A stretch of 58,011 nucleotides of DNA from Thermodesulfovibrionales bacterium (GCA_030682405.1 JAUXOF010000041.1:1-58011), one strand, 5' to 3'; positions 31,467 to 53,029 are shown, numbered from the stretch's first letter. The notes: generated by a model not told the origin, from the sequence alone. Numbers and translations: made by a program.

Positions 31467-31486
31467 AAAGTCTCTATAGACCGAGA

Positions 31487-33448
31487 TTAGTCTGCTACAA
31501 GCTGGACGTAGTCCTTCTTGAAGCACTTCCAGTCGCCGGTCTTCGGGTCGTACTTTGAGTTGACAAAGCACTTCCAGTTCTTGTCGTCGATTGCAAGGTA
31601 GTCGCCCCTGTAATAGTAACCGGGGTATCTGGACTCTTCCCTGAAGAGTATGTGCCTTGCATGCGCCTCGACAGACCATATCCTGTGGTAGTTCTCCCAA
31701 GCCCTCATAAGCTCATGGAGGTCCTTTGCGCCTGTTTTTTCGGCGTCCTCTTTGAGCATCTGGAGGAGTTCAAGGCCCTTATCGAGCATCGTCTTTGAGG
31801 TCATGTACCATGTGGCAATGCCGCCAAAGTACTCGTCGGATATCTTCTGGAGCCTCATCTGAACCATCTTCGGCTTGATGTAGTTGGGGTTTACCTCAGG
31901 CGCGGTCGAGTATGTCTTATGCTTCTCGTATACCTCGAACGGCATGTATAACTCTCCCGCAAGCTCGTCCGGCGACTTCGTCACCGTGGGTTTGAAGTCC
32001 TTGTTGTCAAGGATGAAAGCAAGTCCGGCCTTTGCCGCAATCCTGCCCTCGGCGTGCGAGCCGGAGGAGAATTTATGACCTGATGCGCCGCAGATGTCGC
32101 CCATCATGAAGAGGCCATTCACAGTTGACATCCTGTTATAGCCCCAGTTCCATTCTGCGGGTGCGCCGAGGTCCTCCGGGCCGCTGACCCAGAACCCTGC
32201 GCAGCCTGCGTGAGAGCCTAAGAGATACGGCTCAGTGGGCATAATCTCGGAGGGCGTCTTGTCAGGCTCTATGTTCATGCCTGCCCACACTCCGGCCTGG
32301 CCGATGCACATGTCGAGGAAGTCTTCCCATGCCTCTGCCTCAAGGTGCTTTATCTGCTTTGCGTCCATCGTTTTTGCAAGCTCTGCCATTGCGTGATGAG
32401 TGTTCATGAGGATGGGGCCTTTGCCCGCCTTCATGTCCATCATCATCATGTGGTTACGGATGGCGGTGCCCATCTTCTCTGCATACGGGCTGTAGAGCTT
32501 CTTTGTCGCCTCAAAGTTCTCGCCTACGCAGTAGTCTTCGCCGGCGGCGTTTGTGGCCTTGGCTTTAAAGAAAAGGAACCACGCACCGACAGGGCCGTAG
32601 CCGTCTTTAAACCTTGCAGGCACGAACCTGTTTTCCATCATCGTAAGCTCTGCGCCCACCTGAATGCCGAGGGCATAGCCGGAGCCGGAGTTCCATACCG
32701 GGTACCATGCCCTGCCCTGTCCCTCGCCTACCGAACGCGGCCTGAAGACGTTAACCGCACCGCCGCAGCCTGAGAGAATGACATTGGCCTTGAATATATA
32801 AACCTTGTTCTCCCTTACCGAGAAGCCGACGGCAGCAGCTATCCTGTTGGGAACCTTCTCGTCGAGGAGGTATTTGACGATGAACACCCTCTCGTAGATG
32901 TTATCCATTCCGAGGGCCTTCTTTGCCGCCTCTGCAACGAGCACCTTGTAGGACTCGCCGTTTATCATTATCTGCCACTTGCCGGAACGGACAGGCTTCC
33001 CGCCAGCAGAGAGCTTGGGCGCTCCCTGCGCGCCGTCAAGCGTGTGGCCGCCTTCGTCCTTCTTCCATATGGGAAGTCCCCAGTCCTCGAATTCCTCAAC
33101 TGAATCGTCAACGTGCCTTCCGAGGTCGTATACGAGGTCTTCCCTGATTATGCCCATCAGGTCGTCCCTGACATACTTGACATAAGCTGCCGGGTCATTC
33201 TCGCCCATGTATGTGTTGATAGCCGAAAGGCCCATTGCCACTGCGCCGCTTCTGTCCATAGCAGCCTTGTCAACGAGGGTTATCTTTATTTTGCCTTTTC
33301 CGGCCTTCTCTATCGCATCCGCCCACCTAACCGCCTCAAATGCCGCGCCGCATGCTGACATGCCGCCGCCGACTATCAGGAGGTCGGTATCAACCTGAAT
33401 TATCTCAGGCTTCGTACAATACGAAAAAGTACAAGCTTCTTTTTCCAT
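31487..33448 (-). CDS. aprA: adenylylsulfate (APS) reductase alpha subunit
   Basis: DRSGAVAMGLSAINTY, GKWQIMINGESYK, RAWYPVWNSGS, ENRFVPARFKDGYGPVGAWF, GHKFSSGSHAEGR, REESRYPG; start 33448 fits SD spacing. Confidence 0.97.
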   Translation of the reverse strand: MEKEACTFSYCTKPEIIQVDTDLLIVGGGMSACGAAFEAVRWADAIEKAGKGKIKITLVDKAAMDRSGAVAMGLSAINTYMGENDPAAYVKYVRDDLMGIIREDLVYDLGRHVDDSVEEFEDWGLPIWKKDEGGHTLDGAQGAPKLSAGGKPVRSGKWQIMINGESYKVLVAEAAKKALGMDNIYERVFIVKYLLDEKVPNRIAAAVGFSVRENKVYIFKANVILSGCGGAVNVFRPRSVGEGQGRAWYPVWNSGSGYALGIQVGAELTMMENRFVPARFKDGYGPVGAWFLFFKAKATNAAGEDYCVGENFEATKKLYSPYAEKMGTAIRNHMMMMDMKAGKGPILMNTHHAMAELAKTMDAKQIKHLEAEAWEDFLDMCIGQAGVWAGMNIEPDKTPSEIMPTEPYLLGSHAGCAGFWVSGPEDLGAPAEWNWGYNRMSTVNGLFMMGDICGASGHKFSSGSHAEGRIAAKAGLAFILDNKDFKPTVTKSPDELAGELYMPFEVYEKHKTYSTAPEVNPNYIKPKMVQMRLQKISDEYFGGIATWYMTSKTMLDKGLELLQMLKEDAEKTGAKDLHELMRAWENYHRIWSVEAHARHILFREESRYPGYYYRGDYLAIDDKNWKCFVNSKYDPKTGDWKCFKKDYVQLVAD

Positions 33449-33460
33449 TATCATCCCTCC

Positions 33461-33901
33461 TTATTTCTTTATCGTAGGCATGGTCTTGCCTGCGCCCTGA
33501 TGAGTGAAAAAGCCCGGCTTTCTGAGGCCGTCAAGCTTGGCTTCAGGTTTGCCGGCATAAGGGTCAACGGAACCCTCAGGAGTGGTCCTGATGGGAAACT
33601 TATACCTTTTCAGCTTTCCGTTACGGAATTTAACCGTCCACATTATGCTGTCCGAGCCCCTCAGCGGAATGACGTTGCCTCCGAGCGGAACAAAGTCTGC
33701 ATAACCCCTGACCTCCATTGCCTGCTGAGGACATATCTTAACGCAGTTGTAGCACTCCCAGCACTGTTCCGGCTCCTGATTGTATGCCTTCATAAGGTCC
33801 CTGTTGAGTGTCATCAGGTTATTGGGGCATATGTACTGGCATGCGGTCTTGTCCTGAGCTTTGCATCCGTCACATTTCTCTGCAATCACAAAACTCGGCA
33901 T
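33461..33901 (-). CDS. aprB: APS reductase beta subunit
   Basis: MPSFVIAEKCDGCK...CQYICP...CWECYNCVKICP...VRGYADFVP...IMWTVKFRNG...FPIRTTPEGS. Confidence 0.97.
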   Translation of the reverse strand: MPSFVIAEKCDGCKAQDKTACQYICPNNLMTLNRDLMKAYNQEPEQCWECYNCVKICPQQAMEVRGYADFVPLGGNVIPLRGSDSIMWTVKFRNGKLKRYKFPIRTTPEGSVDPYAGKPEAKLDGLRKPGFFTHQGAGKTMPTIKK

Positions 33902-34013
33902 TTTTCAAACCTCCTTATTAATTTTTCTTAACAACCGTAAATCAAAAAAACTGTTGCTTGCTACCGTCACCCCCTCTCCCGCTGAAATCAACCGTCAAAC
34001 GGCATTTCTATAG

Positions 34014-35228
34014 TTATGCGCCCTCTGAATACTTATGGGTCTTTATCTCGACCTTCTCCGTCAACCCCTGATAGTACGCCTGAAGTATCTTCAAGACCTC
34101 CGGCCTGCTGAAGTGGTCCGGGACTTCCGTGCCCTCTGAGAGCATCTTCCTGAGCTTCGTTCCGCTTAGAAGCATCCTGTCTTCCTTGCCGTGCGGGCAG
34201 GTCCTCATAGAGGCCATTCCGTCGCACTTTGTGCAGTAGAATGTCCAGTCTATCTTAAGGGGCACCGTCTCAAGCGCTCCATCGGGTATCTCATCGAATA
34301 TCTTCTGAGCGTCGAACGGGCCGTAGTACTCTCCAACGCCGGCATGGTCCCTGCCGATTATCATGTGGCTGCAGCCGTAGTTCTGCCTGAAGAGGGCATG
34401 GAGGAGGGCCTCCCTCGGCCCTGCGTATCTCATATCAAGGGGATAGCCTGCCTGAATGCAGGTATCCTTCACAAAGTAGTGCTCAGCGAGCGTGTCTATT
34501 GCCTTGACCCTCACATCTGCCGGTATGTCACCGGCCTTGAGCTTGCCGAGAAGCTGGTGGATGAGGACGCCGTCGCAGGTCTCGATGGCTATCTTTGCAA
34601 GGTACTCGTGGGAGCGGTGCATGGGGTTGCGGAGCTGAAGCGCGGCAACCTTGTTCCAGCCCTTCATCTCAAACATCTTCCTCGTCTCGTCAGGCCTCAT
34701 GTATACGCCCTTGTAGTCCTTCGGGAAAGTCCCTTCGCTTAGGACCTTTATAGGGCCTGCGAGGTTCACGGCCTCCTGCTTCATGACCATGACAACGCCC
34801 GGGTGCTCCATATCCGTTGTCCTAAAGACCTGCTTGCACTCATGCTCCTTGTCTATCTTGTACTTCTCAGTGACCTTCATCGTGGCCATTGCCTCGCCGG
34901 ACTCCTCGTCCACGAGGGCGATTTCCTGACCCTTCTTGATGCTGTCGGCCTGGCCCTCCGAGGTGGAAAGGGTAATCGGGATAGGCCAGAAGGTGCCGTC
35001 CGCCATCAGGTATTTGTCGCAGACCCCCTTCCAGTCGTCGTGCCCCATAAAGCCCTCAAGCGGTGTGAACCCGCCGATACCGAGCATTATGATATCGCCC
35101 GTCTCCCTCGATGCCGTCCTCACCTGCGTAAGGGTCTTAGCCTTTTTCTTCTCCTCGGAAAGCTCATTGCCCTCAAGTATAAGCGGCATCAGCTTTTTCT
35201 TCTTACCATGCGGATTAACAAGTGCCAT
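34014..35228 (-). CDS. sat: sulfate adenylyltransferase (dissimilatory type)
   Basis: [47 protein letters not shown]. Confidence 0.97.
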
Positions 35229-37337: not shown

Positions 37338-40154
37338 TTGCTTGCCGGAGTAGTTTTCTTCTTCGGCATCCTTACCTTTCTGATTGTAAAAAGAGAATCC
37401 GAAATTATCCTCAGCCACTACAAGGAATATTCTTCAAGTCTGGCCGGCATTGCGGCAAAGCAGGTAAGGTTCTACATGCTTGACGGAAGGGCCGAACCCG
37501 TGATTCAACACATTAAAGAGCTAAACGACGAAAACCCCGCGATGCAAATCGGAGTTCTGGGCCCTGACGGCGAGCCTGCCTTCAAAACCGGCATGTCCGC
37601 TCCTCGGGAGATTTTCTCCGGCATGAAGGAGGCGTCCGCGGAGTCCGGAGACAGCCTCATATTCTACATGCCCCTTGAGAACGAAAAAGCCTGCGCCTCC
37701 TGTCATAACCCTGCGGATAAAACAAGGGGCATGATTATAGCAAAGGTCTCTATGGAAAGCGCTAAGAAAGAGACTAAGGAAACAGCCATTCGCATTATAT
37801 TTTTTGCGATATTGCTGGGACTTACGAGCGAGATATTTCTTGTCATAGTCCTTAGAAAGCTGGTCATCGGGCCGATAGATTCGCTCACAAAAGGGGCCGA
37901 GGCCCTGATGGCCGGCAATTTCGGCTACAGGGTCAAACTCCAAAGCAGCGACGAGACCGCGCTTATGGCAGACACCTTCAACCACATGGCCGGGAGGATT
38001 GAGAAGTCGCAGGCGGAACTGGAAACAACCGTCAGGCAGAGGACATCGGAGCTTGAGGTGATTGCCGGACTCTCCTCAGAGGTATTCAGGGGGGATATCA
38101 GCCTGAAAGAGATAATCGGGCGTTTCATGGCCGCCGTTACGAACAGCATGGGTTATAAGTACTCGGTCTTGTGCCTTGTGGACAAGGAGACAGGGATGCT
38201 TCAGCAGGAGTACAAAAAAAACATAGAAAACGGTCTTTGCGCCATGGAAATACCCCTCGCAGGAGACCACCCCTTTGCAAAGGCCATTAGGCAGGCAAGG
38301 CCAGCGATAAGGACTTGCGCTGAGATAAACCTGCCCGCTTCGTACGGCAATATCGCCATAATACCCATTCTTTCCCATCAGAGGAAGCGGTGCAGGGAGA
38401 TAAACCTCTGCATGCATGAAGACTGCCCTGCCTTCTCAGGTGCGGAGGAAAGGTGTTGGATAATAAGCGGCACGCTTTGCAGAAGCCCTCAGGCCGTGGC
38501 AGGCAAAGAGAAGATTTACGGCTGCCTTCACTGCAATGCGTTCCCTGTGATAGGCGTTTTGATAGCAGGCAGGGACGGGGGACTGACAGAGCCTTTGCTC
38601 TATTCCCTTGAAATCCTTACCTCTGAAATTGCCTCTGCAATAGAAAGCCAGAGGCTGATTGAATCCAAAACAGAGGACATAAACAGCCTCATAAAGCTTC
38701 ATGACATTTCCGTTGAAAGGATACAGTCCCTTGACATCACTGAGCTTACAAAGTCCGTGGTTTCATCCGCAGCGGCCTTTGCAAACATGGACGCCGCAAT
38801 ACTTTGGCTCAGGGACGAAAACGGAGAGCTGCATCTGAAAAATGCCTTTGGCATAGACATGGGGCTTGTGCCGGATGCGATTGTCGTAGAGGACTCTTTT
38901 GTCGGCAGGGCCATATTGGAGGACCGGCCAGTTGAGACTGTAAAGACAGGCGATGCAACCTGCCTTAGGGCGCTGATAGCGGAGTACGGCTTTCTTTATG
39001 CAGCAGCCGTGCCGATGAAATTTGAGGGCGCGATATACGGCTGCCTGACGCTGTTTAAGAAAAAGGACTTCTTCATGACGGACTCGGAAAAGGCCGTCCT
39101 TCTGCTTTTTGCCGTACAGGCCGCCGCTGCTTTGAATACGGCCAAGATACACAACGAGCTCAAAAAACAGAAGGAGTTTTCAGATGCCGTTTTCAACAAC
39201 ATGGGCATGGGGATAATCGTTCTTGACAGGGAGGGCTGCATAGTAAAGCTGAACCCGTCCGGCTTTAAGATTTTGAAGGTGGAGGACTATGCCGTCGGAA
39301 TGCGGCTTTTAGATGTCCTGCCCGAGGCATCGGATTTTCTCGTCGTACATGAAAGCATCGGGCGCGAGGTGGAAATCCGGCGCATGGATGAGATTATCCC
39401 CGTGGGCTTCAACAGTTCCCCCCTGCTCGGCGCAAGCGGGCATGAAGGGATTGTCGTTGTGTTCAGGGACCTTACAGAGATAAAGAGGCTTCAGGCCGAG
39501 GTGAGGAAGAGACAGCATTTTGATGCGATGGGCAAGGTGGTCGCAGGCGTCGCCCATGAGATACGGAACCCGCTTTTCGGCATATCCTCCCTTGTTCAGA
39601 TATTAGGAAGGGACATAAAGTCCCCGGAACATCAGGCACTGATACAGGCGGTCTTTAAGGAGACCCAGAGGATGAAGAACCTCATAGAGGAACTGCTGCT
39701 TTACAGCCGTCCCTCAAAGCTCAATATCACCGAGGTGGATTTAGGCGTCTTCATGGAAAAGATTGAGCGCTATATTATGGTCAAGAGCGATAAGGCGGTC
39801 TTCAACTTGAAGGTTCCGGCTTTGACCTCGGTCAGGGCGGACGCTGATAAGCTCATGCAGATATTCCTGAACCTTATTGACAACAGCCTGAACTCCGGAT
39901 GCGGCAATATCGGCATATCCGTAGAGGGGGATACGGAAGGCCGCAGTGTGGTCATAACAGTCAAGGACGACGGCTCCGGGATAAAGAAGGAAAATATCGA
40001 AAAGGTGTTCGACCCGTTCTTCACCACGCGCAAGGAAGGCACCGGGCTTGGCCTTGCTATATGCAGGAAGATTATGGACAACCACGGCGGCAACATGGAA
40101 GTCTCCAGTACCGAAGGGAAGGGCACTACGGTGCGGCTGACGCTCCCGTCATAG
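37338..40154 (+). CDS. sensor histidine kinase: periplasmic heme-c (CxxCH) domain, HAMP, GAF with Cys-rich insert, GAF, PAS, HisKA/HATPase
   Basis: TM1, CASCH at 37692-37706, TM2, HAMP, H-box VAHEIRNPL, N-box FLNLIDNS, DDGSGI, FDPFFTT, GTGLGL. The true start is uncertain (see findings). Confidence 0.9.
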   Translation: MLAGVVFFFGILTFLIVKRESEIILSHYKEYSSSLAGIAAKQVRFYMLDGRAEPVIQHIKELNDENPAMQIGVLGPDGEPAFKTGMSAPREIFSGMKEASAESGDSLIFYMPLENEKACASCHNPADKTRGMIIAKVSMESAKKETKETAIRIIFFAILLGLTSEIFLVIVLRKLVIGPIDSLTKGAEALMAGNFGYRVKLQSSDETALMADTFNHMAGRIEKSQAELETTVRQRTSELEVIAGLSSEVFRGDISLKEIIGRFMAAVTNSMGYKYSVLCLVDKETGMLQQEYKKNIENGLCAMEIPLAGDHPFAKAIRQARPAIRTCAEINLPASYGNIAIIPILSHQRKRCREINLCMHEDCPAFSGAEERCWIISGTLCRSPQAVAGKEKIYGCLHCNAFPVIGVLIAGRDGGLTEPLLYSLEILTSEIASAIESQRLIESKTEDINSLIKLHDISVERIQSLDITELTKSVVSSAAAFANMDAAILWLRDENGELHLKNAFGIDMGLVPDAIVVEDSFVGRAILEDRPVETVKTGDATCLRALIAEYGFLYAAAVPMKFEGAIYGCLTLFKKKDFFMTDSEKAVLLLFAVQAAAALNTAKIHNELKKQKEFSDAVFNNMGMGIIVLDREGCIVKLNPSGFKILKVEDYAVGMRLLDVLPEASDFLVVHESIGREVEIRRMDEIIPVGFNSSPLLGASGHEGIVVVFRDLTEIKRLQAEVRKRQHFDAMGKVVAGVAHEIRNPLFGISSLVQILGRDIKSPEHQALIQAVFKETQRMKNLIEELLLYSRPSKLNITEVDLGVFMEKIERYIMVKSDKAVFNLKVPALTSVRADADKLMQIFLNLIDNSLNSGCGNIGISVEGDTEGRSVVITVKDDGSGIKKENIEKVFDPFFTTRKEGTGLGLAICRKIMDNHGGNMEVSSTEGKGTTVRLTLPS

Positions 40155-40187
40155 CTCCCGCTTCCTCATTGAACTGGCGTGTTATAA

Positions 40188-40261
40188 AATCTCCCCTCGC
40201 CCCTCTTTGCTAAAGAGGGGTAAATTCCCTCCCTTTGGCAAAGGGAGGTTAGGAGGGATTT
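40188..40261. repeat. REP-like double hairpin between convergent genes
   Basis: Stems CCCCTCTTT/AAAGAGGGG (40200-40220) and CCTCCCTTT/AAAGGGAGG (40228-40248), with imperfect outer inverted ends. Confidence 0.75.
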
Positions 40262-40280
40262 GATGGTTAATTCTTCATAC

Positions 40281-41303
40281 TTATGAACTCCTTAGTATCT
40301 CTTCCGCTATTTCGGTAATCGGCAGCACCCTGTCAACCTTGCCGCTTTCTATCGCAACCTTCGGCATGCCGAAGATGGTGGACGTTGCTTCGTCCTGTGA
40401 AATGGTTTTACCCCCAGCGTTTTTTATTGCAACAATGCCTTTTGCTCCGTCCGCTCCCATTCCGGTTAGTATGACCCCGATTGAGCGGCTGCCGTAAGAG
40501 TCGGAAACTGACCTGAAGAGCACATCGGCAGAGGGTCTGTGAATGGCATTAAGAGGCTCTACATCGAGCCTTACCGAGCCTGCTCCCTTCCCGACCTTCA
40601 TATGAAGCCCTGATGGGGCGACCAATGCAAGGCCGTGCTCTATTTTGTCTCCTTCTTCCGCCTCCTTGACGCGGAATGCGCATAGGGAGTCGAGCCGGGC
40701 CGCAAGTGAGGCTGTAAAACCTTTTGGCATGTGCTGGACAATAAGAATGCCGAAAGTAATGTCCTTCGGGAATTTCTGAAGTATCATCTGAAGCGCGGGC
40801 GGCCCTCCTGTGGATGCGCCTATGGCAACGACATCTACTATCCCGCGCGAAGCATATTTTAGGGTATGAGAGGACTCATACGCGAGTCTCACCGGTTTGC
40901 TGCGGGATATTGCCTTGACCTTTGTGACAATCTCGTTGGCAAGGGAAAGGAAATCCATAATTCCGGTGGAGGACTTATCTACGAAATCCATGGCGCCCAG
41001 TTCAAGCGCCTTCAAGGTGAGTTCGGCCCCCTCGTGGGTGAATTGGGAAAGTATGAGCACCGGAACAGGATAGCGCTCCATGATTGCCTTAAGGGTATCT
41101 ATGCCGTCCATCACAGGCATCATGATGTCGAGGGTTACTACGTCGGGCTTAAGCAGCAGGGTCTTCTCAAGCGCCTCCTTGCCGTTGCGCGCCGCACCGA
41201 CCACGTCTATAGAGGGTTCCCGCTCGAATATCCTGAGAAGGGCCTTGCGCACAAAGGGCGAGTCGTCAACGATTAAAACCCTTGTGCGGCGGCTATCAGG
41301 CAT
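40281..41303 (-). CDS. cheB: chemotaxis response regulator protein-glutamate methylesterase
   Basis: REC plus GASTGGP, QHMP..FT, HRPSADVLF, LTGMGADG, QDEATSTIFGMP. Confidence 0.95.
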   Translation of the reverse strand: MPDSRRTRVLIVDDSPFVRKALLRIFEREPSIDVVGAARNGKEALEKTLLLKPDVVTLDIMMPVMDGIDTLKAIMERYPVPVLILSQFTHEGAELTLKALELGAMDFVDKSSTGIMDFLSLANEIVTKVKAISRSKPVRLAYESSHTLKYASRGIVDVVAIGASTGGPPALQMILQKFPKDITFGILIVQHMPKGFTASLAARLDSLCAFRVKEAEEGDKIEHGLALVAPSGLHMKVGKGAGSVRLDVEPLNAIHRPSADVLFRSVSDSYGSRSIGVILTGMGADGAKGIVAIKNAGGKTISQDEATSTIFGMPKVAIESGKVDRVLPITEIAEEILRSS

Positions 41304-41309
41304 TAATAG

Positions 41310-42194
41310 TCACTCCTGACGGAGGGCAGAGGGGGGATTAGGGTTTTTCCTGTAAAGGATGATTCCGTTCCTGTATTCCGGGACGAACAGCTCGGTCCTC
41401 TGGAGCAGGCTCTCGGAGGAGCCGAGTATGAGGTAGCCGCGGTCCGAGATGCAGTTATAGAAGTTAAGGGCAATCCTCTCGAGCGCCTCGTCGCTCATGT
41501 ATATGAGTATGTTTCTGCAGAATATGACGTCAACGTCGCTTATGCCCTCGAATGCGCCGGGCTGGAGGACGTTTGCGTGCAAAAACCCGACATTGTTCCT
41601 GTACGGTTTTTTCAGGATGAACTTGTCATCAGCATGGTCGAAGTACTTCTTTGCGAACTCATGATTCCCGTTAAGCATCCTGAAGGAGTTTTTCGTGTAC
41701 TCCGCGCTTTTTGCCCTTTTAAGGGCGGCGCTGCTTACGTCTATCCCTTCGACGATTACGTCCCAACCCCAAGCGAAAAGGCCGCTCTCCATGAGCAGGA
41801 TATTTAGCGTATAAGTCTCCTCTCCGCTTGAGCATCCTGCGGAAAGCACCCTGACCCTGTTCTGGTTTTTCTTCTGCCTGTATCTTTTGATGTCGTTCAG
41901 AAGCTCGGAGAAGACATTAAGCTGGTGCTTTTCCCTGAAGAAATAAGTCTCGTTGTTGGTGATGTGCGATGCGATGTTATAGAGCTCCTTTTTGGATGGC
42001 TCGGAGGAGACGTATCTGCAATAGTCGCCGTAGGACTGCATGCCCAGTATGCTCAGCCTGTGGGAGATTTTAGTATGCAGGGTGAGGCGCTTGTCCCCTT
42101 TCATTACTATGCCGAATTCCCTTGCTATAAGGTCTTTAAGGAGACCGAACTGTTCGTCCGACATGAACATGTCTTTTCCGGGCGTATCCGTCAC
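41310..42194 (-). CDS. cheR: chemotaxis protein methyltransferase
   Basis: ITNNETYFFRE, SAGCSSGEETY, DVIFCRNILIY, GYLILGSSESL. Confidence 0.95.
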   Translation of the reverse strand: MTDTPGKDMFMSDEQFGLLKDLIAREFGIVMKGDKRLTLHTKISHRLSILGMQSYGDYCRYVSSEPSKKELYNIASHITNNETYFFREKHQLNVFSELLNDIKRYRQKKNQNRVRVLSAGCSSGEETYTLNILLMESGLFAWGWDVIVEGIDVSSAALKRAKSAEYTKNSFRMLNGNHEFAKKYFDHADDKFILKKPYRNNVGFLHANVLQPGAFEGISDVDVIFCRNILIYMSDEALERIALNFYNCISDRGYLILGSSESLLQRTELFVPEYRNGIILYRKNPNPPSALRQE

Positions 42195-43318
42195 ATTATT
42201 CTCTTGAGGTCTTCAATGGCCCGCTTGGCCGCGGATCTGATTTCCTCTTCAGGGTCTGACAGCATTTTGGACAGCAGCAGCACGGACCGTTGCGTAGGAA
42301 TGCGGCCAAGGGCAAGGACGGCTTCTACCTTGACTTCCGGGTCGTTGTCCTCGGCAAACTGCACCAGCGCCGCCTGCTCTCCGAGCATGGAAAGCATCTT
42401 GGCAAGGACACATCTTTGCAGCCGCCCGGTGTCTTTAAGCGCATCTATGATTGCCGGCGCCGCTTTCCTGCCTATGTCCATGAGGCCGCCGATGGCGTAC
42501 TCCTGAAGCTCATCGTTGCTCAGGGCATCCACGAGGTACGGAATCCCTTTTGCATCCGCGGACCAACTAAGCGCTATAAGGGCCGCCCTTCCGATATCCG
42601 GACGGGGTGAGCCTTGAAGCTCTATGAGCATGGGAACCATTGCGGTGAAATACCCGGGCGCAGGCCTTGTTTTTTCCCTCTCGGAGATGTTCACTACGGC
42701 CTTGAGCGCCAGTTCCCTCATGTCATCCTTATCCACAAATGCCGTAAGGCACCTTATGGACTTGGAGTTTCCGGCCCTCTCGATGGCTTCAAACGCCATG
42801 CCCCTGTACGTGTCTTTTTCAACGCATCTATAGAGGACCTCAAGTGCTGATTCTCCGCCTATCTCGCCTATTGAGTTTATTGCGGCCTGTGCGACCCAAG
42901 GCTCGTCTTCAAGCGCCCCGCTCAGCGCGGCTATTGCACTTGGCAAACCTATCTTGCCGAGGGCCTCTGCGCTTGCTATCCTTACGTTGGTGTCAGGGTC
43001 TTTGAGTGCCGGCATGAGAACGGACAGGGCGGTCCCGTCCCTTATGTCGCCCAAGAGGTTGGCGGCGAAGAGCCTTGCCTCCTCGTCTGCGTCGTCTCCT
43101 ATCAGCCGGATGAGGGATGGCAATGCCCTGCTTCCCATCGCCTTGAAAAACTCCATGGAGGCGTTTCTCAGTGTGGCGTCTTCGTGGTTTCTGAGCGCGG
43201 ATTCCAGAAATGGGAGATAAGCGTCCTCTGGCCGGGTAAGGAGACCTTTGATGGCGTTCCTCCTTACCCACCAGTCGGGGTTCTTCAGTTCATCGAGCAG
43301 ATACTGTGTGTCGTCCAT
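42191..43318 (-). CDS. HEAT/PBS-lyase repeat protein
   Basis: Repeated D-x(3)-VR-x(2)-A-A-x-ALG units (DPDWWVRRNAI, DPDTNVRIASAEALGKIG, DPEVKVEAVLALG, DPEEEIRSAA). Confidence 0.9.
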   Translation of the reverse strand: MDDTQYLLDELKNPDWWVRRNAIKGLLTRPEDAYLPFLESALRNHEDATLRNASMEFFKAMGSRALPSLIRLIGDDADEEARLFAANLLGDIRDGTALSVLMPALKDPDTNVRIASAEALGKIGLPSAIAALSGALEDEPWVAQAAINSIGEIGGESALEVLYRCVEKDTYRGMAFEAIERAGNSKSIRCLTAFVDKDDMRELALKAVVNISEREKTRPAPGYFTAMVPMLIELQGSPRPDIGRAALIALSWSADAKGIPYLVDALSNDELQEYAIGGLMDIGRKAAPAIIDALKDTGRLQRCVLAKMLSMLGEQAALVQFAEDNDPEVKVEAVLALGRIPTQRSVLLLSKMLSDPEEEIRSAAKRAIEDLKRIM

Positions 43319-43325
43319 TTCTTCG

Positions 43326-45812
43326 TTAAACCGCCAGCCCCTGTATCACCTTGAATGCCTCGCAGGTCATGCAGTTTTTGATTTTGGAGCGCGCATCGCC
43401 CTGCTGGACGCCCTTGCACCATGTGCCGGTTATGAGCCAGCACCTGTCCTCTGTAGATTTGTAGGCCGGGCACTTCTGCCTTGCGGTATCCGGGCAGCGG
43501 AGTAGTTCCCAGCATTTCTGGTTTCCGTTTGTGTGGATTCTGAAGTTGCTTATGATGTACTGGAGGTTCTCTATCTGAAACAGGGTGTCGTCCGCCGTGG
43601 TCTTCATCTCGCCCGAAAGCTTGAGGTTCTCCGTGGCTATGTGGCTCATGCCCTCCATCGCCTTGACGATGGTCTCGCCGCCTAACTTCTGCTCCGCCGT
43701 GGCGTTTGCCACGTCCCGCGTCATGGTGTTCATCGTCTCCACGGACTGCGCTATCTGCCTTGCTCCGCCCACCTGCTCCTTGACCGCTATGCCCACCTCC
43801 TGCACTGCGGTCTTCATGCGCTCCACGGTCTCCCGTATCTGCTTGCCGCCTATCGCCTGCTCCTTGGTCGCAATGTTGACCTGCTGGACCTGCCTGTTCA
43901 TCTTCTCTATGGCGTTTCTGATGTTGCCCGTGCTTCCGGCTTGCGCCTTGACCGCGCCTGTGACCTCTTCGGTAGAGGAATTCATGTCCACAATGTACTT
44001 CATGACCTGACCCGTGGCCTTGTTCAGCTCGGCTGCGGACTTTGCGATGTCGTTCATTATCTCCGAGGTGTCTTTTACGACGGCTATTATGCCTGTGAAG
44101 GCATCCCTGCTTGATGCGGCAAGGGCCATGCCGCCTTTGCCCTCCCTATAAGTCTCCTCCGTTGCCTTAACCGCATTGGAGGTCTCAGCCTGAACCTGCT
44201 TTATGACCGAGCTTATCTCCTTAGTCGCCTCCATGGAGCGTTCGGCGAGCTTCCGTATCTCTTCGGCGACGACTGCAAACCCCCGTCCGGCGTCGCCGGC
44301 GCGGGCCGCCTCTATGGCCGCGTTCAAGGCGAGGAGGTTGGTCTGGTCGGCTATCTCGTCTATGACTTCCACGATTGAGCCTATCTCTTCGGAACGCTTG
44401 CCGAGGTTCTGGATGAGGGACATCGTCTTTTCCGTGGTATTGCCGATGTTCTGGAGGCTCTCTATGCTCTGGTATATGGCCTTCCCGCCGTCTTCGGCGT
44501 CCTTGAACGCATCCTGACTGAGTTTGTTTGCCGTGCCTATCTTGCCCGCCACTTCCGAAACGGTGCGCATCATCTCCTCTATGGTGCTTGAGGTCTCGGT
44601 CACCATGTGCTTAAGGGACTCTGTGTTTTTGGATATCTGCTCCACCGAGGCAAGGAGGTTTTCCACTGTCAACGAGGTCTCGTTGACGGAATCCGTCATC
44701 GCTCCAGTGTTCCTTGCGGTCTGGTCTATTGAGGAAAGCATCTGCTCTATGGTCGCGGAGGTCTCCTCTACGGAGGCGGCCATTATGTCCGCGTTCTTTC
44801 CGACCTGCTCTATGGAGGCGGCCATCTCGTTTATAGTGGCGGACGTCTCGTCCACGTTTGTCGCAAGGGCCTCGGCGTTCTTAGAGACCTGAGAGATGGA
44901 GACTGCCATCTCTTCCATCGAGGCCGTGGTCTCGTCCGTGGCAGCGGCCTCCTCCTGAGACGAGTTGGCTATGTGGACAGAGCCGGTTGAGACGTTCTCG
45001 GCGGACAGGGCAACGTGGTAAGTGGAATCCGCCGTCTGCTTTATCATGTCTCTGAGGCTCCGCACCACCCTGTTGAAGCCGTCCGCTATCTGGTTTATCT
45101 CGTGGCTGCCTTTTGCGGTAATCTCTGCGGTAAGGTTTCCGGTTTCAAGCTCCTTGACTGTCTTGAGCATGTCGTCTATGGGCGAGGTTATGCCCTTAGA
45201 TATGCCCCTTACGAAGAAGAACCCGCCGATAATGCAGAATATTATCAAAAAGGCCGTGAACCCCACGCCGATTACGTTTGCCCTATTGATGACGGCCTTC
45301 ATTCCGGCCTCCGTAGACCCCGAGTCCTTCTTTATTATCTCTTTCATCCTGTTCAGGCTTTCCTGAACAGAAGCGACCGAGGGGACAGTCTCTTCGAGAA
45401 ATACCTTGCGGGCATCCTCTTTGCGTCCTTCTTTCATTTTTGAGATTATCTTTTCCGCGGAGGCGTGAAGCCTCCTGTGGGGCTCGTCGAGCTTGTCGAA
45501 CGGTTCCTTCAACTCGGCGGAGTACGGCTTGAAGGTCCCCATCCACTTGCCGAGGTTGCATTTTTCCGGGTCAAGCTGGCCCTTGAATTCCTCGCCCTTG
45601 ATGAACATCCCTGAGGAAATCCCGTCCATCCACTTCAGGTGGTCCACGGTGCGTTCGGAAAAGAAGGCGTTCAGGTTGGCAAGCTCCATGGTCTCCTTCT
45701 CTATCCTTTCCACCTTTTTTGAGGACCAGTAAAAAATCCCTCCGAGGGCCGTTACCATGACGAGCGTAATCGCAAGCCCTATAGTGAGTTTCTTGCCTAT
45801 TGTAAGGTTCAT
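43326..45812 (-). CDS. methyl-accepting chemoreceptor: TM-CZB-TM-HAMP-extended MA domain-Cys-rich C-terminal module
   Basis: Hairpin [40 protein letters not shown]; DHLKW/CNLGKW/HRRLH CZB motifs between two TMs; C-terminal CW...CPA...CW domain. Confidence 0.93.
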
Positions 45813-45847
45813 GTCAGTTTCCTCCTGTCGGAAATATATTAATATCC

Positions 45848-46054
45848 CTAAATATTCTTATCCGTTACGACCCCTTTATAGAAATCGCAGTCCCTGCAGT
45901 TATGGATTTTCAGCGCATAAGTCCCCTGCACCTTGCCCCCGCACATCGTGCCCGCCACGAGATAGCAGACCCTGCCGCCCTTGGGGTAGGCGGGGCAGTC
46001 TCCGGTCGTGTCCTTGCCGCATTTCTTAAAGTCCCAGCAATTAATTTTTCCCAT
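45848..46054 (-). CDS. 68-aa free-standing 7-Cys ('two-CW'-type) protein
   Basis: SD GGAGGAGG; CWDFKKC...CPAY...CYLVAGTMC...CRDCDFY with the same spacing as the MCP and kinase modules. Confidence 0.85.
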
Positions 46055-46055
46055 T

Positions 46056-46577
46056 TTATGCCTCCTCCTCCTCCATTACTGCCGGCTTTTCCTTCCTCAG
46101 CAGTTTTTCGAGGTCAAGGAGTATGACAAGCCTGTTCGGGAGCTTGCAAACCCCTGTTATGTAGTCCGTATCCACTTCCAGCACCTCGTCCGGGGCCTCC
46201 TCTACGAACTCCCCTTTGACCTTCATCACATGGCTCACAGAGTCCACAAGGAGGCCGAGCACCTTGCCGTTTACCTCGGTTACCACTATCCTTGAGCTTT
46301 TCGTGATGCCCTCGTCGCTTATCCTCAGCTTTTTCCTCAGGTTAAGCACCGGGAGTATCTTTCCGCGCAGGTTAATCACCCCTTCCATGTACGCGGGCGA
46401 GTTCGGGACTACGGTCATGTTGCCGACCCTGATTATCTCCTGCACCTGATTGATAAGCACGCCGTACTCCTCCCCAAGGTTGAACGTCACGAGGTGCAGT
46501 TCTCCCTCGCGACCTCCGTTTCCCTGACCGAGGATGTCTTCGGCAAGACCCGAAGCCTGTAGATTGATTTCGCCCAT
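46056..46577 (-). CDS. cheW: chemotaxis coupling protein CheW
   Basis: LVTFNLG.EYGV...VPNSPAYMEGVINLRGKILPV...GLLVDSV. Confidence 0.95.
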   Translation of the reverse strand: MGEINLQASGLAEDILGQGNGGREGELHLVTFNLGEEYGVLINQVQEIIRVGNMTVVPNSPAYMEGVINLRGKILPVLNLRKKLRISDEGITKSSRIVVTEVNGKVLGLLVDSVSHVMKVKGEFVEEAPDEVLEVDTDYITGVCKLPNRLVILLDLEKLLRKEKPAVMEEEEA

Positions 46578-46579: not shown

Positions 46580-48232
46580 CTAACTCCTTTCCCCCTCAGG
46601 GGCCTTCTGTTGCCCGGCGCCGCTGTCCTTTGCGAGGCCGTTTCCGCTCCAGAAGGCGAGGGCGTCTATGATTAGCACTATCTTTCCGTTGCCGAGAATG
46701 GATGCCCCGACTATCCCGGCTGATTTCCCGAACGTGTCGTCAAGGGGTTTTATTACTATCTCCTGCTGGCCCCTCAGCCCGTCTACGGCGAGCGCGAGCC
46801 GCTTTTCCGCCTTCCTTACGACCACGAGGTAGAACTTTTTCCTCTTCGCGCCGCCGAGGTTGAAGAACCTGTTCATTCTGACAACGGGCAGCACTTGGTC
46901 CCTTAAGCGGATTACCTCGCGGTTGTTGACCATGTGTATGTCGCTCTCTTTCACCTTTACACTCTCGTCAACGGAGCTCATCGGTATTGCGTATATCTCG
47001 CCCGAGGACTCCGCCATGAGGGCGGGTATGATGGCAAGGCTCAGGGGAAGTTTAATGGTGAAAACGCTCCCCTTGCCGGAAACGCTTTCCACTGTCGTCT
47101 GTCCGTTCAGTCTGGATATGTTTCTGCTTACCACGTCAAGGCCGATGCCCCGGCCTGATATGTCCGAGGTCTCCTCCTTTGTGGTAAATCCCGGCATGAA
47201 GATAAAAGACATTAGGTCTTCCCTGCCCGGCAAGGCGTCCTCGCTTGAGAGGCCCCTCTCTATTGCCTTCCTCCGTATCTTTTCCGGGTCTATGCCCCTT
47301 CCGTCGTCCCTGACCCTTATGATTACGTAATTGGATTCCTGAGAGGCCGAAAGTATGATTTTGCCCTCAGGGCTTTTGCCCTTATTGATGCGTTCCGCCG
47401 GGGTCTCTATGCCGTGGTCTATGGCGTTTCTTATTATGTGAAGCAGGGGTTCGCCGAGTTCGTCAATGACGGTCTTGTCAAGCTCCGTGTCTTCGCCCTC
47501 AAAGGAGAGGACGACCTGCTTGCCCTGAGAGCGCGCTATGTCCATTACCATCCTTGGAAACTTGGAAAATACGACCTTCACCGGCAGCATCCGTATCTTC
47601 ATGATGCCTTCCTGAAGCTCGGATACCGTCTTGCCTATGAGTTGAAGCCCCTCATGCAGCTCATGTATGAGCGGCTTGGAGGCAAGGACGGGCTTTATCC
47701 TTTCCTCTATCTGGTTCATCCTCGTTTTGAAGATTACCAGCTCTCCGACCATGTTCAGAAGGTCGTCGAGCCTCTTGAAGTCCACCTTGATGGTGTCGGT
47801 CTTCGAGCCCATATACGCTTTAAGGGAGAGTGTCTTCTGTCCGGCGTCTTTTCCGTTTCCCTCGGCGGCATTCTTGAGGGAAAGTATGCCTTCGGCGAGG
47901 TCCGGATGGTTAGAGGGGTGTTCCTCTAAATGCGAAAGGGCGTCTCTTATGATGTTTGCGCTGTCAAGGAGCGTCTCCATTACTCCTTCAAGGGGTAACT
48001 TCTCTTCAACCACGGCCTTAAGGATGCCTTCGACCTGATGTATGTACGTCTTTAGGGACTCAAAGCCCATCATCCCGGAGTTCCCCTTAAGGGTGTGCAG
48101 CGAACCGAGGGTGTTCTGTATGAGGTCCCTGTCGAGGCCGTCGCGCTCTAAGGCCATCAGCGCGGCGTCGAATGCCCCGATGTGGACGTTGGCGTCGTCT
48201 ATGTAGTCTTTTATGAGCGCTGAGTAGTCCAA
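46580..48232 (-). CDS. cheA: chemotaxis histidine kinase CheA (Hpt-dimerisation-HATPase-CheW; no obvious P2)
   Basis: LHTLKGNSG (P1), TIKVDFKRLDDLLNMVGELVI, HIIRNAIDHGIE, DDGRGID, SGRGIGLDVV. Start placed at TTG 48232 to avoid a 59 bp overlap with cheY; uncertain. Confidence 0.93.
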   Translation of the reverse strand: MDYSALIKDYIDDANVHIGAFDAALMALERDGLDRDLIQNTLGSLHTLKGNSGMMGFESLKTYIHQVEGILKAVVEEKLPLEGVMETLLDSANIIRDALSHLEEHPSNHPDLAEGILSLKNAAEGNGKDAGQKTLSLKAYMGSKTDTIKVDFKRLDDLLNMVGELVIFKTRMNQIEERIKPVLASKPLIHELHEGLQLIGKTVSELQEGIMKIRMLPVKVVFSKFPRMVMDIARSQGKQVVLSFEGEDTELDKTVIDELGEPLLHIIRNAIDHGIETPAERINKGKSPEGKIILSASQESNYVIIRVRDDGRGIDPEKIRRKAIERGLSSEDALPGREDLMSFIFMPGFTTKEETSDISGRGIGLDVVSRNISRLNGQTTVESVSGKGSVFTIKLPLSLAIIPALMAESSGEIYAIPMSSVDESVKVKESDIHMVNNREVIRLRDQVLPVVRMNRFFNLGGAKRKKFYLVVVRKAEKRLALAVDGLRGQQEIVIKPLDDTFGKSAGIVGASILGNGKIVLIIDALAFWSGNGLAKDSGAGQQKAPEGERS

Positions 48233-48236
48233 TGCC

Positions 48237-48665
48237 TTATTTTGCCTGTAGGTGTTTAATGCCTGCCGCCATAAGAGGAGAGGGCTTTTTGGCAAGCACC
48301 TTCTCTATCAGGTCGTGGAGCACATCAGGCTTGAAGGGCTTAACCACATATCCCCATGCGCCTAACTTAAGCGCCCTCATCGTGTCGTCCTCCTTGCCCT
48401 CGGTGCTTATAACTATGATGGGGATGCCCTTATAAAGCCTGTCCGCCTTAATTTTTTCCATGAACTGCACGCCGTTCATTATGGGCATGTTTATGTCAAG
48501 GAGTATGAGTTCTATCCCGCCTTCCCTTGAGAGGATGTCGAGGGCTTCAAGGCCGTTCATGGCGTCAAGTATGGCGCAGTTTTTGTACCGGGTAAGTATC
48601 AGCCTGTACATCTGGTGGATAAGGTGTGAATCGTCGACTATTAATATCTTGTTCAGGGTAGACAT
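48237..48665 (-). CDS. cheY: single-domain response regulator CheY-like
   Basis: ILIVDDS, LLDINMPIMNG, IIVISTEG, YVVKPF; directly upstream of cheA. Confidence 0.85.
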   Translation of the reverse strand: MSTLNKILIVDDSHLIHQMYRLILTRYKNCAILDAMNGLEALDILSREGGIELILLDINMPIMNGVQFMEKIKADRLYKGIPIIVISTEGKEDDTMRALKLGAWGYVVKPFKPDVLHDLIEKVLAKKPSPLMAAGIKHLQAK

Positions 48666-48676: not shown

Positions 48677-49060
48677 TTAGATGTCTTTTGATACTGCTAT
48701 ATCAAGCTCCTCAACCATTTTTATCAAGTCGTCCATGTCTATGGGTTTTTCAAAGTAATGGTAAGCGCCCCTTCTGCCGGCCTCTTCCTTCATCTCATCA
48801 GAGCCGTAAGCGGTCATTATAATCACCGCAGTCTCAGGGCTGATTTTCTTTACGTAGCTCAGGAGTTCAAGCCCTTCAATGCCGTCCACCCCGCTCAGCC
48901 TTATGTCAGCGATAACGAGGTCGAATTTGTATCTGACCAGCGCCTCTTCGGCCTCCTCGATTCTGCTGCTCGTTATTACAACGGTGTTCTCGTTGCTTAA
49001 GAGATGGGAAAGGGCCATCAGTATCACCGGCTCATCGTCAACCACTAAAATCTTTTTCAT
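48677..49060 (-). CDS. second single-domain response regulator
   Basis: ILVVDDE, ADIRL..VDG, IMTAYG, YFEKP. Confidence 0.85.
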   Translation of the reverse strand: MKKILVVDDEPVILMALSHLLSNENTVVITSSRIEEAEEALVRYKFDLVIADIRLSGVDGIEGLELLSYVKKISPETAVIIMTAYGSDEMKEEAGRRGAYHYFEKPIDMDDLIKMVEELDIAVSKDI

Positions 49061-49224: not shown

Positions 49225-50559
49225 TTAATGGCTCTGAATATCGTAGCCCTTCATCTTCTCTATAAGGGTTGACCGGGAAATTCCCATAATCTTTGCGGCC
49301 TTTGTCCGGTTGCCTGCCGTAGACTCAAGGACATTAAAGATATGAGAGCGCACAATATCTTCAATCTTTTGTCCTGCCCCTGCAATGGGCGGCGCTGCCG
49401 AAGGCGACGTGCCGCTTTTTAGCACTATATTTTCTGCGTTTATAACCCGTCCATGGGCCAGTATGGAGGCCCTTTCGATGATGTTTCTCAGTTCCCTGAT
49501 ATTGCCGGGCCAGTTGTAGGAGCAGAGGAGTTCCATCGCGCCTTTTTCAAACCCGGTGCGCTTCCTTCCGGTTGCGTTGTTTATCTCCATGAGGAAGAAC
49601 TCCGCAAGCAGGGGGATGTCTTCGGGCCGTTCCCTCAGAGGCGGTATTGTTACAGGCATTACGTTTAGCCTGTAATACAGGTCTTCTCTGAATGTCCCGT
49701 TCTTTACGGCCTGTTCGATGTCCTTGTTTGTGGCTGCAATGATTCTTACCTCAACCTTTATATCTCTGGTGCCGCCAAGCCGGCGGAAGGCCTTTGTCTC
49801 TATGACCCTGAGGAGTTTGCTCTGGGCGGCAAGGGGCATATCGCCTATCTCGTCAAGGAACAATGTGCCGTTGTCCGCAAGTTCAATCAGCCCCCTTTTT
49901 GCCGACTTTGCGTCCGTAAACGCCCCTGCCTCGTACCCGAACATTTCGCTTTCAATCATATTTTCCGGGATGGAGGCGCAGTTTATGTCAATGAAGGGAT
50001 TAGAGCCTTTTATGCTCTGAAAATGGATATTCCTTGCTACAAGCTCCTTGCCCGTCCCTGTCTCGCCCCGTATCAAGAGGGTTGTCGAGGGGTTTTCAGC
50101 CATGAGGTTAACCATGTGGATGAGTCCCTGCACAGCCCTGCCCCTTCCTATGATGAGGTATGGCGACTTCCTGCAGAAGGCCAGTTCCTGCCGCAGTTTT
50201 ATTATCTCGGAGCTCTTTTCGATTATAGCGCCGAGTTCATCGAGGTCTATGGGTTTCTGGAAATAGTTCTCGGCCCCGAGTTTGATGGCCTCTATGGCCT
50301 CGTTAATCTCCCCGAAGGCGGTCATTATATAGACGGCGGTTGACGGCGAGCCGGACTTTATCTCCTTCAGGATGTTCAGGCCGTAAGCGTCGGGAAGCCT
50401 GAGGTCAAGGAGGACTATGTCGGGCCGGTTCTTAAGCGCAGCATCAATCCCCTCTTCCCCTGTTTCCGCGGCCAGCACTTCGTAGTCCTTTGCTTCGAAA
50501 AAGACCTTAAGCGCAAGCCGTATGGACGGTTCATCCTCTATTAGAAGAATCCGCAGCAT
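49225..50559 (-). CDS. sigma54-dependent response regulator (NtrC/AtoC family)
   Basis: REC, Walker A GETGTGKE, ESEMFGYEAGAFTDA, LFLDEIG, FREDLYYRL, WPGNIREL, Fis HTH NRTKAAKIMGISRSTL. Confidence 0.95.
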   Translation of the reverse strand: MLRILLIEDEPSIRLALKVFFEAKDYEVLAAETGEEGIDAALKNRPDIVLLDLRLPDAYGLNILKEIKSGSPSTAVYIMTAFGEINEAIEAIKLGAENYFQKPIDLDELGAIIEKSSEIIKLRQELAFCRKSPYLIIGRGRAVQGLIHMVNLMAENPSTTLLIRGETGTGKELVARNIHFQSIKGSNPFIDINCASIPENMIESEMFGYEAGAFTDAKSAKRGLIELADNGTLFLDEIGDMPLAAQSKLLRVIETKAFRRLGGTRDIKVEVRIIAATNKDIEQAVKNGTFREDLYYRLNVMPVTIPPLRERPEDIPLLAEFFLMEINNATGRKRTGFEKGAMELLCSYNWPGNIRELRNIIERASILAHGRVINAENIVLKSGTSPSAAPPIAGAGQKIEDIVRSHIFNVLESTAGNRTKAAKIMGISRSTLIEKMKGYDIQSH

Positions 50560-51817: not shown

Positions 51818-53029
51818 CTACCCCTCCTTCATAAAGTAGTCCATAAGCCTGAAACCCTCTTCTATCCTCACGATGTCGTCTCTTTCAGAGAGCGTCTCGT
51901 CAAACCGCGCGCCCTTGTTGTCTTTCTTTTGCCTGCTGTCGTAAAGGACAAACGGGACAGGCTCCTCAGTATGGGTCCTGGCCTCTACGGGAGTTGCGTG
52001 GTCAGGAAGCAGGAGGATTTTATACTCATCAAAGGGCTTGATGCCCCTCAGGACGGTTCCCACGACAAGGGCGTCAAAGTCCTCTATCGCCTTTATCTTG
52101 TCGTTACAATTGCCGGAATGCCCGGCCTCATCCGGCGCCTCCACGTGGATATACGCAAAGTCCACCCGTTCGAGGGCATTAAGCGAATACTCCGCCTTTC
52201 CCACATAGTTTGTATCGAGGTAGCCCGTAACTCCCGGCACCTTCAATATCTCAAGTCCCGCATAAATGCCGAGCCCTTTTGTGAGGTCTACTGCCGAGAC
52301 CATTACGCCCTTAATTCCGTATCTTTGGGTAAAGGACGGCAGGCTCGGTTTTTTGCCCTGCCCCCAGAGCCATATGCTGTTGGCCTGCCTCCTGCCGCTT
52401 TCAACCCTTTTCTTGTTTACCGGGTGAGCTTCAAGCACTCCGACGGAACGGAGCATCAAATCCCTGAGGGTTTCCTCGCCTTCTCCAACAGGGAGGTAGT
52501 CCGTGACCTCTTTATCAAGGATGTCGTGCGGCGGGGTGCATTCAGGGCCGAGCGAGCCGCCCGCCCAGACCATGAGGTGCCTGTAGCTTACGCCCGGATA
52601 AAATGTTATCTCCTCCGAGCCGAGCGATGCGTTCAACTCTTTAATCAGTTCTGCGGCCTCTCCGGTTGATATATGTCCGGCGCAGTAGTCTTTCATGTGC
52701 GCCCTTGCCATTTGTTTGTCATAGCCTAAAGTGACGAGGTTGCACCTGTAGGCCACATCTTTTTCTTTAAGCCCGACGCCCATGCTTGCGGCCTCAAAAG
52801 GCGCCCTGCCGGTATAGTACTGTGCAGGGTCGTATCCCAGTATGCTCAGGTTGGCCACGTCCGAGCCGGGGTGGAAGCCTTTCGGGATGGTCCTTACCAT
52901 GCCGATTGTGCCTTCTCTTGCGAGTTTGTCCATGTTGGGCGTGAAGGCCTTCTCAAGAGGGGTTTTACCGCCAAGTTCTTTTACCGGCCTGTCGGCCATC
53001 CCATCGCCAATCATGACGATATATTTCAT
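51818..53029 (-). CDS. apgM: cofactor-independent phosphoglycerate mutase family (ApgM-like; candidate homoserine kinase substitute)
   Basis: [31 protein letters not shown] metalloenzyme motifs; translationally coupled to thrC. Confidence 0.85.

Follow-up and report, generated by a model that had tools for sequence, protein, structure and literature searches.

A seven-cysteine two-CW domain carried by a chemoreceptor, a histidine kinase and a free mini-protein of one chemosensory locus: a candidate cytoplasmic input domain of a Thermodesulfovibrionales bacterium

The known cytoplasmic input domains of bacterial signaling proteins (PAS, GAF, hemerythrin, CZB and PilZ, among others) are largely characterized. 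In some systems the sensor is a separate soluble protein, as in the bipartite receptor CetA/CetB of Campylobacter jejuni, in which CetB is a PAS-FAD protein and CetA lacks a sensor of its own. In others it is placed at the end of the receptor, as in DcrH of Desulfovibrio vulgaris, a methyl-accepting chemotaxis protein (MCP) with a C-terminal hemerythrin domain (PMC9388753), and chemosensory and kinase branches can act on a common regulator, as in the Che3 system of Myxococcus xanthus, in which the CheA3 and CrdS branches act on the NtrC-like regulator CrdA (PMC3147164). Here we describe a chemosensory (che) locus that can be compared with these systems. It lies in a stretch of 58,011 nucleotides from a Thermodesulfovibrionales bacterium (GCA_030682405.1, JAUXOF010000041.1:1-58011; the whole stretch is hereafter the window) and contains three copies of a seven-cysteine module, the two-CW domain: one inserted in a sensor histidine kinase, one forming the C-terminal tail of an MCP and one making up a free protein of 68 amino acids, the mini-protein (Table 1). 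We put at about one in two the probability that two-CW is a cytoplasmic metal-center input domain whose three paralogues feed a non-flagellar chemosensory pathway and a histidine kinase.

The locus has in common with Che3 that MCP, CheA, CheW, CheB and CheR are encoded in or beside one cluster together with a stand-alone histidine kinase and a sigma-54 activator, and that its use is non-flagellar, which here is read from a genome without flagellin. This gene content of Che3/CrdS-CrdA type (che core, separate kinase and NtrC-type regulator) is kept in related loci. The two systems differ in their CheY proteins, of which this operon encodes two and Che3 none, and in the cysteine-rich input domain, which no description of Che3 reports as shared by its components and of which Che3 includes no free copy. 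The resemblance to DcrH lies in the receptor, which in both cases is a sulfate-reducer membrane MCP made up of a periplasmic region, HAMP, a signaling domain and a small cytoplasmic metal-type sensor at the extreme C-terminus. However, hemerythrin is a four-helix bundle with a His/carboxylate di-iron site, whose structures have been solved and whose O2 binding has been measured, whereas the two-CW module is all-cysteine, about 55 residues long and of an unrelated predicted fold. As in CetA/CetB, a small soluble sensor-domain protein is encoded beside the MCP and presumed to act in trans, but here the MCP bears its own two-CW copy, so that the free one comes on top of it and is not the sole sensor. 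Finally, CZB (PF13682) is, like the candidate proposed here, a small metal-thiolate/His sensor found on MCPs as well as on diguanylate cyclases, and it accompanies two-CW in this MCP and in three of 36 long members of the two-CW family. It is nevertheless a helical bundle with 3His/1Cys zinc, that is, another fold, and the Pfam CZB model does not match the two-CW segments. The two-CW family itself is already catalogued and unstudied, with no Pfam model, structure, cofactor or paper, and what the locus adds is a conserved three-way use of the domain including a free copy, a nested loss series and the use of the module as a constant input. We rate the locus as a good experimental entry point and not as a categorically new system.

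An earlier note on the window, made by a model from the DNA sequence, had pointed to three seven-cysteine segments and to their resemblance to the 'two-CW' domain. ORF listing and motif mapping found the ORFs and motifs at the positions given there, and the resemblance was confirmed by NF045718, the NCBIfam model named 'two-CW domain' (80 positions, curated cut-off 35 bits). As this is an independent curated model and matches all three segments, the motif is not a chance match. The mini-protein scores 66.4 bits (E 2e-18; 65.1 bits in a six-frame search of the genome), the MCP tail 40.1 bits (E 3.5e-10; 44.9 bits six-frame) and the kinase insert 25.8 bits (E 1e-5; 24.2 bits six-frame), the last being below the cut-off and covering model positions 21-75 only. 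The homology of the kinase insert is supported because its seven cysteines align and because a two-CW profile built for this analysis gives orthologous inserts 36-67 bits (29.6 for that of the G262 locus), which is partly circular since this profile includes the window's insert. NF045718 is a naming model with no function assigned, and the literature search found no paper on the two-CW domain or on NF045718, in agreement with what the earlier note had said of the domain.

The pattern of the model, CW-x4-C...CPA...CW-x3-GT-x-C...C-x2-C, has seven cysteines, which all three copies possess; in the kinase the motif reads C352-x5-C-x4-CPA-x7-CW-x3-GT-x-C-x14-C-x2-C-x2-F. The consensus first proposed for the three copies stands for all seven cysteines, which align, but not for the dipeptides: the MCP tail keeps both CW pairs, whereas the first is CR in the kinase insert (CR and CW) and the second is CY in the mini-protein (CW and CY). 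This CR is CW in two of nine aligned orthologous inserts (L011 and L047). The seven cysteines are also invariant in five further copies of the same genome (eight copies in total), i.e., four long-form stand-alone proteins of 98-123 amino acids and a second kinase with a C-terminal copy. The long-form proteins (C10:9458-9766, C59:5036-5332, C70:5607-5978 and C56:6355-6693) are scattered among housekeeping genes, and each has an extra 'GxHGGxNAGR' insert and an amphipathic C-terminal tail of ~25 residues; the three locus copies are, in contrast, short-form and lack the 'GxHGGxNAGR' insert. Pairwise identity among the three locus copies is only 20-33%, which marks them as old paralogues and not local duplicates.

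In order to follow the three copies in other genomes, the surroundings of mini-protein orthologues were annotated with the window's own proteins and the two-CW profile, and further orthologous loci were collected by searching the order with the MCP; 26 loci of this type, the window included, were covered in the study. The same gene order occurs in 14 other Thermodesulfovibrionales/Nitrospirota contigs from five GTDB families, and all 11 contigs that reach the kinase contain mini-protein, tail and GAF-nested insert together, the other three ending before it. The earlier note had named a lack of conserved co-occurrence as a ground against its proposal, and since the trio is conserved in every contig covering the whole cluster this ground is removed. 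Across the loci four states are found. The mini-protein, tail and insert occur together (state A) in the window and 11 fully readable loci; tail and insert occur without the mini-protein (state B) in G172, G342, G425, G181 and G154; G302 has two tailed MCPs, no mini-protein and a 580-aa kinase without either GAF domain (state C); and G324 and G346 have a tail-less MCP, no mini-protein and no genome match to the GAF1/two-CW region (state D), this last absence being weak as both assemblies are fragmented. The mini-protein was never seen at a locus of this type without tail and insert, while the converse occurs.

Such a distribution bears on whether the three copies have anything to do with each other. 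They could be independent uses of a domain that is abundant in this lineage, their proximity reflecting no more than the clustering of signaling genes, and the eight copies in this genome, the presence of the domain in half of the phylum's genomes with up to 15 copies each and the distant relationship of copies that are not local duplicates all agree with this. It is nonetheless improbable, because the same three subfamily-specific copies recur in all 11 other whole-cluster loci of five families and because gain and loss follow a nested pattern (none; tail and insert; tail, insert and mini-protein). Each copy is under strong purifying selection, with nonsynonymous (pN) and synonymous (pS) values over nine loci of 0.086 and 0.77 for the mini-protein, 0.14 and 0.75 for the MCP tail and 0.20 and 0.76 for the kinase insert. 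In the orthologue alignment, each subfamily retains its own signature and the seven cysteines are invariant.

The kinase consists of a periplasmic sensor (PF21563), HAMP, a first GAF domain (GAF1) with the nested two-CW module, a second (GAF2), PAS, HisKA and HATPase_c (Pfam). In its native form the region that follows HAMP is unrecognized by Pfam, and only the first half of GAF_2 (PF13185) is matched by the GAF1 sequence, with 17 bits. When residues 351-402 are removed in silico, GAF_2 positions 3-136 of 136 are matched with 28.8 bits against a cut-off of 28.6. The excision thus restores a full-length GAF match, from which it is clear that the kinase module is nested inside a GAF domain. This GAF-nested form is represented by 70 database clusters, almost all of them from Nitrospirota. 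Orthologues of the kinase occupy the same position in 17 related loci, and across eight orthologues the insert has 59-80% identity versus 32-68% elsewhere in the kinase, which makes it the best-conserved kinase segment except for two values of the GAF1 flanks (one equal, in L009, and one slightly higher). The periplasmic sensor (aa 40-140, 37338-37850) contains a CxxCH heme-c-type motif, CASCH, that is CHQCH or CYACH in orthologues. The second two-CW kinase of the genome (606 aa, contig C82:1498-3318) has CIGCH and CYTAACH motifs in its sensor together with its C-terminal two-CW domain, so that a heme-c sensor and two-CW form a recurring pairing.

In the chemoreceptor, a transmembrane (TM) segment, a CZB-type domain, a second TM segment, HAMP (36.4 bits) and a long MCP signaling domain (PF00015, 174.7 bits) precede the two-CW tail. 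The CZB-type sensor (aa 58-123, 45200-45700) sits between the two predicted TM segments and is thus apparently periplasmic. The two-CW module, C767-F820, is followed by eight residues and the stop codon, and tail-less orthologues of the MCP terminate exactly at the F-[KR]-I-x-[ST]-N-G linker that precedes the module, which identifies the tail as a discrete appended domain. Among MCP orthologues the tail has 70-80% identity and the signaling domain 66-80%, whereas the periplasmic sensor has been exchanged for unrelated sensors (12-19% identity) in five of eight. As tail and insert are conserved while the sensor of the receptor is swapped, the cytoplasmic two-CW input is the constant element of the system, and the periplasmic inputs are variable. 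The pentapeptide that tethers CheR and CheB is known from only a minority of MCPs. The contrast that the earlier note had drawn between this tail and a pentapeptide usually carried by MCPs was therefore overstated, and C-terminal MCP sensor domains have a precedent in, e.g., the hemerythrin of DcrH (PMC9388753).

Some related loci have an extra gene, for a secreted periplasmic binding protein, between mcp and the mini-protein gene (or cheW). By eye, these proteins appear to be of two types, phosphate- and phosphonate-binding-like (L048 9061-9885, L146 7497-8411, L055 8949-9827, L151 11423-12214; L057 5783-6640, L056 8983-9903), and a small Cache-like protein occupies the same position in L154 (2733-3206). 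The insertion of a binding protein beside mcp in these relatives suggests indirect ligand sensing by the receptor.

The ORF of the mini-protein consists of little besides the two-CW module. Its ATG lies 1 nt past the cheW stop codon and behind a GGAGG run, which makes translational coupling to cheW probable. Orthologues with 73-86% identity are found at the same position in the 14 contigs, which belong to metagenome-assembled genomes (MAGs) of groundwater and sediment Nitrospirota/Thermodesulfovibrionales. The mini-protein looks like a later, dispensable addition that is produced together with CheW. Other mini two-CW genes occur in relatives (L058 4647-5716, L059 9505-10071, L060 9476-10042, L061, L064 and L065), either as tandem arrays of two or three or, away from any che genes, directly next to a gene pair for a histidine kinase and a sigma-54 response regulator. 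A small cysteine-rich ORF with relatives in tandem arrays (L058-L060) could also be the precursor of a ribosomally synthesized and post-translationally modified peptide (RiPP) and not a folded domain. This reading was rejected as extremely improbable because members of the sequence family also form domains of large proteins and its predicted fold is confident; in addition, the ORF has no leader/core organization, and in the conserved locus only che and kinase query proteins were matched and no maturase is evident.

To place these copies within the whole family, a profile search was run against 1.84 billion representatives (clusters at 50% identity), which returned 2,577 clusters at E<=1e-3 and 1,204 at E<=1e-10. 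Among the best 150 of the 2,577, 83 have the domain as a stand-alone protein, and it lies at the C-terminus in 36, at the N-terminus in 33 and internally in 15, some members having two copies. The 36 long members contain MCPsignal (12) and HATPase_c (nine), and other partners include GGDEF, EAL, REC, Ser/Thr protein kinase, PP2C, cyclase, cNMP-binding, NIT, CZB, Usp and hemerythrin domains. This range of partner domains points to two-CW as a signaling input domain, and the survey of host architectures and taxa that the earlier note had advised gave a distribution that fits such a role. NF045718 has matches in 151 of the phylum's 301 genomes, with a maximum of 15 copies per genome, and in none of 14 model genomes, two of them from anaerobes. 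Record titles name Nitrospirota, Actinomycetota (Aquicultor), Syntrophales and other Thermodesulfobacteriota, Verrucomicrobiota, Riflebacteria, Zixibacteria, Ignavibacteriales, Melainabacteria, Spirochaetes and the archaeon Ca. Methanoperedens, all of the records being MAGs. With a domain so widespread (151/301 phylum genomes) and a wiring that resembles Che3/CrdS-CrdA (PMC3147164), the 'undescribed signaling system' of the earlier note claimed too much.

Of 349 instances of the domain, 338 retain all seven cysteines, and the proteins concerned are by topology cytoplasmic. Only the fifth (Cys5, C38) is recurrently replaced (6 of 349), and variants are too few for the patterns of cysteine loss to group the cysteines. 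AlphaFold2, run with an alignment of 128 sequences, gives a confident model (predicted local distance difference test, pLDDT, 93; predicted template modeling score, pTM, 0.79), in which four short helices accompany a beta-hairpin that has Cys5 at its turn; a model from a 20-sequence alignment had a pLDDT of 63 and was discarded. The predicted fold is novel, as neither Foldseek (E<=0.001) nor a sequence-profile search found a relative in the PDB, and no Pfam family recurs among the 128 members at E<=1, with no link to Fer4, zf-CW or zinc-ribbon.

Small cysteine-rich domains are often structural zinc binders. Two-CW might accordingly be a zinc-stabilized docking module without any sensing function, an adaptor that recruits a common partner or joins mini-protein, tail and insert and so couples the chemosensory array to the kinase. 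Three copies in one conserved locus, with the mini-protein present only together with tail and insert, the translational coupling of the mini-protein to the scaffold protein CheW and the existence of tandem two-CW pairs in single polypeptides, which suggest side-by-side work, are consistent with docking. This is possible but on the unlikely side, because the three subfamilies have diverged as far as they have, each with its own conserved surface residues, because five related loci work without the mini-protein, because the majority of the family stands alone, in genomes and contexts without che genes, and because the domain takes input positions (N- or C-terminal to output domains, or GAF-nested) in proteins with a wide range of unrelated outputs.

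The host is a sulfate reducer, as the earlier note had supposed: the window contains a dissimilatory sulfate-reduction cluster (26448-35228) with sat (34014-35228), aprB, aprA, two HdrA-like Qmo subunits and qmoC, and the matches of sat, aprB, aprA and qmoC exceed NCBIfam equivalog or subfamily cut-offs. Its 2.0-Mb genome is 99.8% complete, and no flagellin gene was found in it, which makes it unlikely that the che cluster steers flagella. The genome has eight CheW-domain matches on four contigs (C3, C14, C22 and C25) and five MCP genes, and presumably all of its chemosensory systems have non-flagellar outputs. The che genes are transcribed in the order sigma-54 activator (REC-AAA-HTH_8), two CheY, CheA, CheW, mini-protein, MCP, HEAT-repeat protein, CheR and CheB, with the kinase convergent at the far end. 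The sigma-54 activator, which is kept at the head of the operon in related loci whose contigs extend that far, is the likely common output.

A sulfate-reducing host, in which the same proteins bear other oxidant- or redox-type sensors (CZB and the CxxCH heme-c motif) and Cys5 is occasionally dispensable, would also suit a metal-free thiol switch, in which the cysteines sense oxidants or sulfide/polysulfide directly through reversible disulfides or persulfides. We consider this rather improbable: seven almost absolutely conserved cysteines at constant spacing speak more for metal ligands than for a redox pair, an odd number must leave at least one cysteine unpaired, and a small fold with little hydrophobic core probably needs a metal to fold.

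In the metal-center model that we favor, two-CW would be a small, autonomously folding cytoplasmic sensor domain whose seven cysteines most likely hold either an Fe-S cluster or one or more zinc-thiolate sites, and its signal may be redox state, O2, NO or sulfide. The three anciently diverged paralogues would then provide a constant intracellular input to the chemosensory pathway and to a classical histidine kinase. Because the domain follows the last helix of the signaling bundle, the receptor tail should sit near the HAMP/membrane end, and from this intracellular position it could shift the control of the kinase, as the C-terminal sensor domain of DcrH does. The kinase copy would act within the first GAF domain, upstream of GAF2, PAS and the dimerization and histidine phosphotransfer (DHp) domain. 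The mini-protein would be an accessory and probably array-associated copy, co-translated with CheW, and may act beside the receptor tail in the manner of the second domain of tandem two-CW MCPs. The shuttle or titrator role that the earlier note had put forward for it is likewise a hypothesis. By phosphotransfer, both branches probably converge on the sigma-54 activator, as in Che3/CrdS-CrdA.

Several observations weigh against this model. The seven cysteines fit no canonical Fe-S or zinc motif, and the searches found no literature on the two-CW domain, NF045718 or Fe-S/cysteine-rich chemoreceptor domains and no member with a demonstrated metal, ligand or signal. The low mutual identity of the three copies means that a common signal is not guaranteed. 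At least five loci that are equivalent in other respects have no mini-protein, and one locus has a kinase without the GAF/two-CW region, so that no single copy is indispensable. MCPs with tandem two-CW domains exist, one of them with the same CZB-MCP layout (P0067), but their two domains arose by recent duplication, are nearly identical and resemble the mini-protein and tail types equally, which makes them weak Rosetta-stone evidence for a pairing of tail and mini-protein. Lastly, the search for evidence of expression found the sequence of the locus in groundwater DNA runs only.

A bolder version of the model takes two-CW for a new class of all-cysteine metallocluster sensor, with one intracellular redox cue read three times in the locus, and is doubtful. 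The center would probably be an O2-, NO- or redox-labile Fe-S center on a fold without a solved relative, used as a plug-in input for chemoreceptors, kinases and c-di-GMP enzymes mainly in microbes of anoxic habitats (judged from record titles only). The cue would be read by the tail, by the GAF-nested copy and by a free copy that pairs with the tail inside the array, and array and two-component kinase would jointly set the activity of one sigma-54 regulator. If two-CW is indeed a redox or metal sensor, it would help to explain how anaerobes, sulfate reducers among them, couple their internal state to behavior and transcription. The locus offers the domain in three forms, one of them an easily expressed soluble protein of 68 residues, and the related loci form a natural series with none, two or three copies that predicts the phenotypes to be expected.

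Table 1. Genes and domains of the two-CW locus, with positions counted from the first nucleotide of the window.
Feature	Position	Strand	Basis or remark
Sensor histidine kinase, 938 aa	37338..40154	+	Pfam; convergent with che operon
GAF1 domain of kinase, aa 255-435, split by two-CW insert	38100..38642	+	in silico excision
Two-CW copy 1, kinase insert C352-F402, seven Cys	38391..38543	+	NF045718 match below threshold
CheB methylesterase (REC and CheB_methylest)	40281..41303	-	
CheR methyltransferase	41310..42194	-	
HEAT-repeat protein	42191..43318	-	Pfam HEAT_2
Chemoreceptor (MCP), 828 aa	43326..45812	-	Pfam CZB, HAMP, MCPsignal; NF045718 at aa 765-824
Two-CW copy 2, C-terminal module of MCP, C767-F820	43353..43514	-	NF045718 above cut-off
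Two-CW copy 3, free 68-aa mini-protein between cheW and mcp	45848..46054	-	NF045718
CheW	46056..46577	-	Pfam
CheA (Hpt, dimerization, HATPase and CheW-like domains)	46580..48295	-	
Two single-domain CheY-like response regulators	48237-48665 and 48677-49060	-	
NtrC-type sigma-54 activator (REC, AAA+ sigma-54 interaction domain, HTH_8), operon head	49225..50559	-	

Some further features of the locus and of the window deserve mention. The HEAT-repeat protein is a fixed member of the che operon that adjoins CheR and is retained in all related loci, those without two-CW tails included; in L148 and L149, two HEAT-repeat copies flank cheR. Elsewhere in the window, the segment 8001-10000 has 39% G+C versus ~53% in the remainder; it carries three small ORFs whose function is unknown and is possibly of foreign origin. 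At the other end, positions 53026-57538 hold a compact run of sulfur-carrier-type genes that adjoins genes of the threonine branch.

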